Origin: Acaryochloris thomasi RCC1774 | Lineage (GTDB): Bacteria; Cyanobacteriota; Cyanobacteriia; Thermosynechococcales; Thermosynechococcaceae | Length of the DNA: 32,000 nucleotides | Assembly (NCBI RefSeq): GCF_003231495.1 | Contig: NZ_PQWO01000010.1 | Span: forward strand, 1-32,000 | Direction of reading: 5' to 3' | Shown here: one piece after another, positions 10,816-11,265 of the stretch | Numbering within the stretch: the stretch's first letter is position 1 | Layout: the number at the start of each line of letters is the position of its first letter | Translations under genes and position numbers: made by a program | Notes under the pieces: model-generated | The model's input: the letters and a program-made list of their open reading frames with translations, nothing else | Databases searched by the model: none | Told to the model about the DNA's origin: nothing

Positions 10816-10893
10816 TGGTACTCCCGACAGGATTTGAACCTGCAAAAACTCTGTCCCTCAAACAGAGGCGTTTACCGATTTCGCCACGGGAGC
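10816..10893 (-). tRNA. tRNA with Leu anticodon GAG but a short (class I) variable region; CCA encoded
   Basis: Acceptor GCTCCCG/CGGGAGT with A73. Anticodon arm TCTGT-TTGAGGG-ACAGA (G37). T arm GCAGG-TTCAAAT-CCTGT. The variable region is ~6 nt. Confidence 0.65.
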
Positions 10894-10897
10894 GAAG

Positions 10898-10971
10898 TAC
10901 TCCTGGTGGGAGTCGAACCCACAACCTCTGGTGTCTAAGACCAGCGCCTCTTCCGGTTGGGCTACAGGAGT
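10898..10971 (-). tRNA. tRNA with Leu anticodon UAG but a short variable region; no CCA
   Basis: Acceptor ACTCCTG/CAGGAGT with A73. Anticodon arm CTGGT-CTTAGAC-ACCAG. Variable region AGGTT. T arm GTGGG-TTCGACT-CCCAC. Confidence 0.7.
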
Positions 10972-10979
10972 ATGAACAG

Positions 10980-11054
10980 TCCGAGTGGCAGGATTTGAAC
11001 CTGCGACATCCTGGCCCCAAACCAGGCGCGCTGACCAAGCTGCGCCACACTCGG
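10980..11054 (-). tRNA. tRNA-Pro(UGG), no CCA
   Basis: C1:G72 acceptor CCGAGTG/CACTCGG with A73. Anticodon arm CCTGG-TTTGGGG-CCAGG (G37). T arm GCAGG-TTCAAAT-CCTGC. Confidence 0.85.
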
Positions 11055-11059
11055 ATACT

Positions 11060-11135
11060 TGGTACTCCCGGTGAGACTTGAACTCACAACCTCTGGTGCT
11101 TGAAACCAGCGCCTCTTCCCATTGGGCTACAGGAG
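11060..11135 (-). tRNA. tRNA with Leu anticodon CAA but a short variable region; CCA encoded
   Basis: Acceptor GCTCCTG/CGGGAGT with A73. Anticodon arm CTGGT-TTCAAGC-ACCAG. Variable region AGGTT. T arm GTGAG-TTCAAGT-CTCAC. It is near-identical to 10898..10971 outside the anticodon loop. Confidence 0.7.
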
Positions 11136-11191
11136 CATAAAAAATTGAGAACTTGAAAAACGGATCTCGGAACTGTTCTCCGAATACCCGA

Positions 11192-11265
11192 TACTCCTGG
11201 CGGGAGTCGAACCCACAACAAACTGTGTTTAAGACAGCCGCGTCTACCAATTGCGCCACAGGAGT
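11192..11265 (-). tRNA. tRNA with Leu anticodon UAA but a short variable region; no CCA and no intron
   Basis: Acceptor ACTCCTG/CAGGAGT with A73. Anticodon arm GCTGT-CTTAAAC-ACAGT. Variable region TTGTT. T arm GTGGG-TTCGACT-CCCGC. Confidence 0.7.

Follow-up and report, generated by a model that had tools for sequence, protein, structure and literature searches.

Four leucine-anticodon tRNA genes without a long variable arm in a tRNA array of Acaryochloris thomasi RCC1774 and their relatives in cyanobacterial arrays and phage clusters

The DNA analysed here (the window) comprises the first 32,000 nucleotides (nt) of contig NZ_PQWO01000010.1 of the cyanobacterium Acaryochloris thomasi RCC1774. 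It contains 27 tRNA genes, all located on the minus strand, which were called by ARAGORN in two blocks at 7530-8185 and 10666-12745. In the latter block, between positions 10816 and 11265, four genes carry the leucine anticodons GAG, UAG, CAA and UAA. An earlier note on this DNA had claimed that they fold into ordinary class-I cloverleaves, thus lacking the long variable arm of the class-II tRNALeu of bacteria. The region was examined with ARAGORN and with the Rfam tRNA covariance model (gathering score of 29), and both recovered the four genes in this form. Their Rfam scores range from 53.1 to 62.6 bits and exceed the scores of the Ser and Tyr genes in this array, which are long-armed. The housekeeping tRNALeu genes of the host are located outside the window.

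The gene for tRNA-Leu(GAG) occupies positions 10816-10893 of the minus strand (53.1 bits) and counts 75 nt up to A73, with an encoded CCA at 10816-10818. tRNA-Leu(UAG), at 10897/8-10971 (minus strand, 62.6 bits), is 74 nt long and its CCA is not encoded. tRNA-Leu(CAA), at 11060-11136 (minus strand, 56.8 bits), consists of 74 nt followed by an encoded CCA. tRNA-Leu(UAA) is also 74 nt long and was called at 11190/2-11265/6 of the minus strand (58.3 bits at 11192-11265), with an additional eighth acceptor pair in the ARAGORN drawing. A parse of the minus-strand sequence revealed that all stems are intact in the four genes. The acceptor stems of the GAG, UAG, CAA and UAA genes read GCTCCCG, ACTCCTG, GCTCCTG and ACTCCTG, respectively, and A73 was present after each of them, as had been claimed. 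The variable regions are GTTTTT, AGGTT, AGGTT and TTGTT in the same order, that is 5-6 nt. With a length of 74-75 nt up to the discriminator, the four tRNAs cannot accommodate a long arm. The tRNA-Ser (84-85 nt) and tRNA-Tyr (85 nt) of the same array are both long-armed. The description as ordinary cloverleaves holds for the short variable region but not for the D arm, which with its 3-bp stem and 11-nt loop is of the type found in class-II tRNALeu. The anticodon register is fixed by U33, by the 7-nt loop and by the covariation of the flanking stems in 89 homologues. The earlier note had named a long arm or another anticodon register as what could appear on a correct fold. Neither was found; a hidden arm and a shifted register are both excluded by the tRNA length together with U33, the loop size of 7 nt and the covariation of the stems on either side.

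Outside the anticodon loop, the UAG and CAA genes form the closest pair, as noticed earlier, although they are 88% identical rather than nearly identical; the other pairs share 67-81%. This suggests that the CAA gene is a duplicate with a UAG-type body and a shifted anticodon. The CAA genes of other arrays have a body that differs from the one of the window. A 48-nt body pattern of the UAG gene (GCCCAAYNGGNAGAGGY-N25-GGGTTC) occurs once in the window and in none of 100 shuffles. The GAG, CAA and UAA genes display the same architecture but differ in the exact motif.

The search for the same class-I Leu family in other tRNA arrays, which the earlier note had proposed, was done on 80 genome loci fetched via alignment of the HNH endonuclease encoded next to the array, six plasmid loci and the window. 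All loci were analysed by ARAGORN and its bracket output was parsed. The family was found across cyanobacterial arrays, and further in phage clusters as detailed below. The sampled loci contain 158 Leu-anticodon tRNAs, none of which has a class-II arm. Their variable region measures 5 nt in 91 cases, 6 nt in 55, 7 nt in one and 9 nt in 10, while the single case of 26 nt is a gene disrupted by an insert. The variable region of tRNA-Ser in the same loci is 12-22 nt long (three odd genes aside) and that of tRNA-Tyr 12-14 nt. A73 is present in 157 of the 158 Leu tRNAs, U48 (the last nucleotide of the variable region) in 156 and the 17-nt Leu-type D region in 142. Orthologues of the Leu genes of the window were identified in the trn operon of Anabaena and in at least 60 other cyanobacterial arrays. 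The 9-nt variable regions (CTATTTTGT, TTTCTTGTT) are stemless and intermediate in length between class I and class II. They occur in CAA and GAG Leu tRNAs of loci L011, L013, L014, L019, L027 and L033, which belong to one Calothrix/Tolypothrix/Nostoc clade.

An alignment (A2) of the 89 distinct Leu tRNA sequences from the array loci was used for covariation analysis. U8, A14, A15, G18, G19, A35, T54, T55, C56, A58 and A73 are invariant in this alignment. Standard pairs make up 99.0% of the stem cells, compared to 78.6% in shuffles and 36-44% in slid controls. Changes on both sides were detected in 18 of the 20 pairs, and the observed values were reached by none of 500 shuffles. RNAalifold independently returned the same cloverleaf from the alignment. 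U72 is almost universal in the armless Leu family, giving G1.U72 or A1-U72. Judged from these sequences, the Leu RNAs of the arrays are under selection for the class-I tRNA fold and are not relics. The view of the earlier note that they form a coherent functional family rather than products of decay is supported by armless orthologues in 86 loci, by the covariation of the stems and by the conserved set of leucyl-tRNA synthetase (LeuRS) determinants presented below.

An anticodon-free pattern (GCCCAAYNGGNAGAGGY-N24-27-GGGTTC) was scanned on IMG/VR and matched at least 120 viral contigs. All 120 viral tRNAs among the matches listed carry Leu anticodons, which belong to both the NAG and the YAA boxes (UAA 64, UAG 27, CAA 18, CAG 6, GAG 3, AAG 2). 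Among these listed matches, the variable loop is 4-6 nt long, and A73, U8 and U48 are found in 119, 119 and 117 of the 120 tRNAs, respectively. The viral loci of the same listed matches keep the arm in 33 of 34 tRNA-Ser and 16 of 17 tRNA-Tyr, and 18 of their 196 Leu tRNAs have a variable region of at least 11 nt.

Megablast of the window array against a phage collection gave no match. Sensitive blastn of the window UAG tRNA against annotated phage genomes yielded end-to-end matches to genes annotated as tRNA-Leu. The Mycobacterium prophage prophi86-1 encodes Leu(UAG) and Leu(CAA) with 5-nt loops, in the vicinity of RtcB, a tmRNA and an RF-1-like gene. Its Leu(UAG) agrees with the window UAG gene in D arm (GCCCAACTGGCAGAGGC), variable loop (AGGTT) and T stem (GTGGG). 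Gordonia phage Sixama harbours three armless Leu genes together with armed Ser and Tyr, and HNH genes inside the cluster. Streptomyces phage Wofford combines UAA (5 nt) and CAA (7 nt) with a GAG tRNA bearing a 14-nt arm, and has an RNA ligase and Pnk adjacent. Two tRNA-Leu genes of 74 nt stand on either side of an HNH gene in Myxococcus phage Mx1, and the Leu genes of Sinorhizobium phage Phosso count 77 and 78 nt. The mycobacterial and actinophage clusters resemble the window array in adjoining HNH endonucleases and RtcB or RNA ligase. They differ from it in host phylum, gene order and regulation, and some of them mix class-I and class-II Leu. Matches on Thermus and Limosilactobacillus plasmids turned out to be tRNA-Trp and tRNA-Arg, and a match in Agrobacterium phage Atu_ph07 gave no Leu call by ARAGORN; these were not counted.

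Bacterial LeuRS reportedly recognises A73, U8-A14, A15-U48, G18/G19 with U55/C56, and U54-A58, and does not read the anticodon (PMC6614811, PMC2377443). In Aquifex tRNALeu, removal of the variable arm mainly reduces affinity and no identity element lies in the arm (PMC2377443). This identity set (A73, U8-A14, A15-U48, G18G19 and the 3-bp D stem) is complete in the four genes of the window. The D region of the UAA gene (GCGCAATTGGTAGACGC) is identical at 16 of 17 nt to that of E. coli tRNALeu(CAG) (GCGGAATTGGTAGACGC), a reference sequence that matched annotated tRNA-Leu genes at 100% identity in each of the 5,426 genomes with which it was checked. The signature composed of A73, A15:U48 and the 17-nt NNN-NAA-NN-GG D region was found in 140 of 151 Leu-anticodon tRNAs of the arrays. 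Outside Leu it occurs there only in 15 tRNA-Ala, all of which have G3:U70, and in one tRNA-Tyr. G3:U70, the mark read by alanyl-tRNA synthetase, is absent from all 151 Leu tRNAs, and alanine identity was rejected for this reason.

Bodies of non-Leu array tRNAs reach at most 79% identity to any Leu body. Within the Leu set, bodies that are 94-100% identical carry UAG/CAG, UAG/CAA or UAG/UAA. The anticodon has therefore drifted across both codon boxes but within the Leu set only, as expected where the synthetase ignores the anticodon. Between the two options left by the earlier note, leucine identity and recoding to another amino acid, these sequence features strongly favour leucine: the body is coupled to Leu anticodons among the listed viral matches, anticodon shifts stay inside the set, and G3:U70 is missing.

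The tRNA cluster of Anabaena was reportedly first described by Puerto-Galan and Vioque in 2012. Megablast of the window array returned matches of 75-81% in plasmids of Nostoc, Calothrix and Tolypothrix, including NC_003273.1 (pCC7120delta of Nostoc/Anabaena sp. PCC 7120), which is the carrier of the published trn operon (Santamaria-Gomez et al., 2021, PMC8421152). L-arrays are recognised by at least 20 dense tRNA genes on one strand, and the window has 27 on the minus strand in its two blocks. Homologous tRNAs, gene order, the HNH gene and a TrcR-type promoter together identify the window array as an apparently chromosomal member of the L-array or trn-operon family. The order Leu(CAA)-Pro-Leu(UAG)-Leu(GAG)-Lys is common to the window and the Anabaena operon (L001, as called by ARAGORN), which also has the same four armless Leu isoacceptors (75-78 nt), an upstream HNH endonuclease (74% identical) and TGTAGTAT operator repeats over a TAGTAT -10 box. 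The association of rtcB with the array is likewise shared with cyanobacterial L-arrays. Unlike the Anabaena operon, the window array is apparently chromosomal instead of plasmid-borne, it is split by an insertion with RNA-ligase and SUKH-1 genes, its Leu(UAA) gene is relocated, its CAA gene has a UAG-type body, and genes for Val and Ile(GAU) are absent. Of the 26 operonic tRNAs of Anabaena, 23 could be detected; they were aminoacylated in vivo and were also found in polysomes, a result that reports the charged state and not which amino acid was attached (PMC8421152). Since there are four Leu genes and only three genes escaped detection, at least one class-I Leu tRNA is charged in Anabaena. The class-I nature of these Leu tRNAs receives no mention in the searchable part of the text of the trn-operon papers.

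Class-I tRNALeu has precedents. The type-I tRNALeu(CAA) of S. coelicolor is leucylated by the host LeuRS and was presented as a rare case (Fan et al., 2019, PMC6614811). Like the genes of the window, it is a bacterial tRNA that combines a Leu anticodon with a short variable loop (5 nt). The same host also has class-II tRNALeu and only one LeuRS, and U8-A14 is important for the type-I tRNA (PMC6614811). The latter is encoded by a single essential chromosomal gene, in contrast to the paralogous set on a mobile array in the window. In Streptomyces, A73 is reportedly no identity element and a special LSD region of LeuRS is needed (PMC6614811), and the likeness to the window is one of description only. 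In a mycobacterial tRNA cluster that also includes an HNH gene, the variable loop of tRNALeu(UAG) is short, unlike the long one of the housekeeping copy (Behra et al., 2019, PMC6582537). A cyanobacterial survey lists tRNALeu variable loops of 5, 6, 7, 9 and 11-17 nt without comment (PMC6933170). Its short lengths (5, 6, 7 and 9 nt) are those counted here in the arrays, and the full range would fit hosts in which class-I and class-II tRNALeu occur side by side. The class-I tRNALeu of animal mitochondria also has a short variable loop, Leu anticodons and A73 (PMC6614811), but it is served by a dedicated mitochondrial LeuRS and has a relaxed core, so that the likeness is again by description and homology is not implied. 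Compared with canonical class-II tRNALeu (E. coli, Aquifex), the window genes have the same A73, U8-A14, A15-U48, 3-bp D stem, 11-nt D loop and G18G19 placement. They differ by a variable region of 5-6 nt without stem instead of about 15 nt with a stem-loop, and the near-universal U72 of the armless family is a further difference.

The novelty implied by the earlier note was therefore too high, as the trn-operon orthologue, the class-I tRNALeu of S. coelicolor and the short-loop tRNALeu of mycobacteria precede it. A general rule, according to which armless Leu tRNAs are systematic in L-arrays and common in phage clusters where Ser and Tyr stay armed, was found stated nowhere in the searchable literature. 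This rule is a generalisation from the loci sampled here and not a complete census.

The promoter-proximal tRNA block (10666-12745, minus strand, 19 tRNAs called by ARAGORN) runs in the order Asp, Glu, Cys, Met, Trp, Glu, Tyr, Ser, Arg, Phe, Asn, Gln, Leu(UAA), Leu(CAA), Pro, Leu(UAG), Leu(GAG), Lys, Lys. The distal block (7530-8185, minus strand) contains eight, namely Met, Thr, Gly, Gly, Arg, Ala, His and Ser, and was identified by ARAGORN and by megablast matches to plasmid arrays of Nostoc/Anabaena. No extra tRNA-like genes appeared in the spacers when the array was scanned permissively with Rfam. Alignment of the 156-nt spacer to array tRNAs, on the other hand, uncovered an interrupted tRNA-Gln(UUG) at 11321-11418 (minus strand), which neither ARAGORN nor Rfam had called. 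Its first 54 nt and last 17 nt or so match the intact orthologue of L007 (5825-5898). The insert, a unique sequence of 26 nt at 11339-11364 (ATTTCCTTCGGAAACGCTGACGCGAA) forming a UUCG-capped hairpin, stands directly after T54 of the T loop. Similar inserts of 20-26 nt were found in other array tRNAs, namely Arg(ACG) of L004 and L062, a tRNA of L049 with a Phe-like body and Leu(GAG) of L037. Two of the inserts in other loci have the motif TTCGCGTAGCGTG in common. These inserts may represent the very small mobile repeats known from cyanobacteria. The 53 nt that separate Leu(UAA) from Leu(CAA) contain a terminator-like hairpin (11166-11184, minus strand), which is weak, precedes a T run and may be due to chance. 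Related arrays, e.g. L003 and L004, contain fourteen tRNAs of about 72 nt with an amber-reading CUA anticodon in the slot between Glu(UUC) and Trp. In Anabaena (L001, 7930-8000) this slot is taken by a 71-nt tRNA with a Ser(CGA) anticodon and elsewhere by a 72-nt Lys(CUU) tRNA; it seems to be occupied by a tRNA of variable anticodon, which is absent from the window.

Two protein genes separate the blocks, both on the minus strand. An RNA ligase is encoded at 9288-10586 (Pfam RNA_ligase, 2.6e-13), with an N-terminal tRNA_bind hit (6e-5) below the cut-off; among the related loci its orthologue is present only in the nearest relative, L007, and a look-up of the exact protein yielded no recorded match. 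A SUKH-1/SMI1-KNR4 protein (Pfam) is encoded at 8433-9110, and this gene was found in none of 86 related loci. The SUKH-1 family typically comprises immunity proteins that counter polymorphic toxins. Downstream of the array, genes for a DUF6847 protein (6955-7422, minus strand) and for the RNA ligase RtcB (4655-5890, minus strand; Pfam RtcB, 1.9e-129) also adjoin the arrays of L007, L078 and L080. A terminator scan detected a strong terminator-like hairpin of 15 bp at 4557-4520, located 3' of rtcB. Upstream of the array lies the HNH endonuclease gene (13475-13987, minus strand; Pfam HNH_5/HNH), whose product is 72-76% identical to those of the HNH genes adjoining six plasmid arrays. Its linkage to arrays was observed in 80 genome loci, and that of HNH genes to L-arrays in cyanobacteria has been described (PMC8421152). 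Farther out, the flanks carry genes of ordinary chromosomal type, for a KaiB-domain histidine kinase, Fpg and PAPS reductase. The nearest relatives are L007, from an uncultured cyanobacterial metagenome-assembled genome (HNH 92% identical), and pA of Kovacikia minuta (tRNAs 92-96% identical), whose array of 32 tRNAs includes five armless Leu genes.

The array promoter was located at 12912-12952 on the minus strand. It consists of a -35 box TTGACA (12940-12935), a 17-nt spacer and a -10 box TAGTAT (12917-12912), and represents the best sigma-70-like site within the 10 kb scanned. Three exact TGTAGTAT repeats were found on the minus strand at 12952-12945, 12930-12923 and 12919-12912, the last of which overlaps the -10 box. 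They lie about 170 nt upstream of the first tRNA, and no further exact copy exists in the window. In the Anabaena trn promoter, the footprinted site of the repressor TrcR is TGTAGTAT over the TAGTAT -10 box (PMC10272220), and tandem repeats over the -10 box and the transcription start confer stress inducibility (PMC8421152). By its sequence, the window array is predicted to carry an intact operator/promoter of the TrcR type, and the whole stretch 12912-4520 may be a single stress-inducible transcription unit.

Taken together, it is probable that the window encodes four functional class-I Leu tRNAs which read all six Leu codons and belong to a horizontally spread L-array residing in a cyanobacterial chromosome. 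During normal growth TrcR would silence the operon, and translational stress would derepress it together with the rtcB and RNA-ligase genes. The precursor would be processed and CCA added to those genes in which it is not encoded. The host LeuRS, presumably blind to the anticodon and to the variable arm, would leucylate the four tRNAs via A73, the acceptor end and the tertiary core. UAG and GAG would then decode CUN, and UAA and CAA would decode UUR, so that the array tRNAs may add to the housekeeping tRNALeu pool or take the place of its damaged members. In bacteria, the long arm is used by SerRS and TyrRS. That the arm was lost in Leu only would be most simply explained by the fact that these two synthetases need it and LeuRS does not.

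Several points weigh against this explanation. Bacterial tRNAs reading CUN normally have G37 or m1G37. Position 37 is G in the GAG gene, but the UAG gene has A37 after G36 and the CAA gene G37 after A36 (anticodon loops at 10930-10936 and 11095-11101 of the minus strand, respectively); this non-canonical position in the UAG and CAA genes may alter modification or the keeping of the reading frame. The minimum-free-energy fold of the single sequence is the cloverleaf in two of the four genes only, with z-scores of -0.7 to -2.7. Single-sequence folding being indecisive, the structural case rests on the covariance model and on covariation and not on thermodynamics. Individual Leu copies do decay: in the Leu(GAG) gene of Anabaena (L001, 6753-6830), with which L017 and L024 were grouped, the T stem is broken (ACTCT vs CCTGT). 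This gene is likely a pseudogene and probably one of the three non-detected operonic genes, while the GAG copy of the window is intact. In vitro, E. coli LeuRS left the type-I tRNALeu(CAA) of S. coelicolor uncharged (PMC6614811), so that the lack of the arm is not tolerated by every bacterial LeuRS. Finally, Anabaena deprived of the trn operon still recovered protein synthesis (PMC8421152), and as the deletion is tolerated, the physiological role of the operon is subtle.

An alternative explanation of the missing arm is that armlessness is itself an adaptation, by which spare tRNALeu becomes invisible to factors of the host or of competitors reading the class-II shape, such as tRNA-targeting toxins, defence nucleases or arm-dependent modification enzymes, while still being charged by LeuRS. 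The recurrence of the same armless family in phage clusters from Mycobacterium, Gordonia, Streptomyces, Myxococcus and Sinorhizobium hosts and in the at least 120 uncultivated viral contigs is consistent with this idea. So are the RNA-repair genes (RtcB, RNA ligase/Pnk, Ro-like proteins) which repeatedly adjoin the arrays, and the SUKH-1 protein of an immunity-type family inside the window array. However, no toxin or nuclease reading the tRNALeu arm was identified in this analysis, neutral loss under a LeuRS that ignores the arm accounts for the pattern more simply, and some phage arrays retain class-II Leu beside class-I copies (the GAG tRNA of Wofford with 14 nt, and the 18 of 196 with at least 11 nt in the listed viral loci). 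An adaptive origin is thus considered rather unlikely, and only a small chance is given to the broader proposal that armless tRNALeu is a selected hallmark of mobile tRNA sets across phyla and the window array a toxin-proof backup for leucine decoding.

Recoding or mischarging, by which another or an ambiguous amino acid would be inserted at Leu codons under stress, appears very improbable. Conservation of the LeuRS identity set is nearly complete, neither G3:U70 nor a long arm for SerRS is available, and the body is coupled to the Leu anticodons of two codon boxes in all 120 viral matches listed. By established identity rules, the synthetases that accept class-I tRNAs with A73 mostly read anticodon bases which are absent from the Leu tRNAs of the window. 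What speaks for recoding is the absence of the long arm as a hallmark of bacterial tRNALeu, the rejection of another type-I tRNALeu by E. coli LeuRS (PMC6614811) and the aberrant acid-gel mobility of the operonic Phe and Ile tRNAs of Anabaena, but no mistranslation was observed there at the tested codon (PMC8421152). That the four genes are non-functional relics, i.e. decaying duplicates carried passively by a mobile array, is highly unlikely as well: wrecks do exist in arrays, such as the tRNA-Gln(UUG) of the window with its 26-nt insert, Leu(GAG) of Anabaena with its broken T stem and Leu(GAG) of L037 with an insert, and the Anabaena operon is dispensable in the laboratory (PMC8421152), but the stems are intact in all four window genes, compensatory changes in 18 of 20 pairs accompany 99% pairing over 89 distinct sequences, the nucleotides of the tertiary core are invariant and the regulated promoter is conserved.

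With functional class-I Leu tRNAs as the preferred explanation, the window itself is confirmatory, in that it adds a further operon of the trn type whose TrcR-type promoter is intact, and its value lies mainly in the generalisation and in the question of LeuRS recognition. Bacterial class-I tRNALeu has been regarded as a rarity of Streptomyces by textbooks and by the enzymology paper of 2019, a view that the array and phage data contradict. In cyanobacterial L-arrays tRNALeu is armless as a rule (none of 158 with a class-II arm), and armless copies are abundant in phage clusters; the Ser and Tyr arms are retained in the same clusters. For annotation, this means that class-I Leu genes should remain tRNA-Leu and not be flagged as pseudogenes. 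The LeuRS of many phyla presumably accept class-I substrates, despite the one rejection by the E. coli enzyme, and the armless Leu tRNAs offer a natural panel for defining the requirements of LeuRS. The overall pattern agrees with the rule that only those tRNAs lose the arm whose synthetase leaves it unread.

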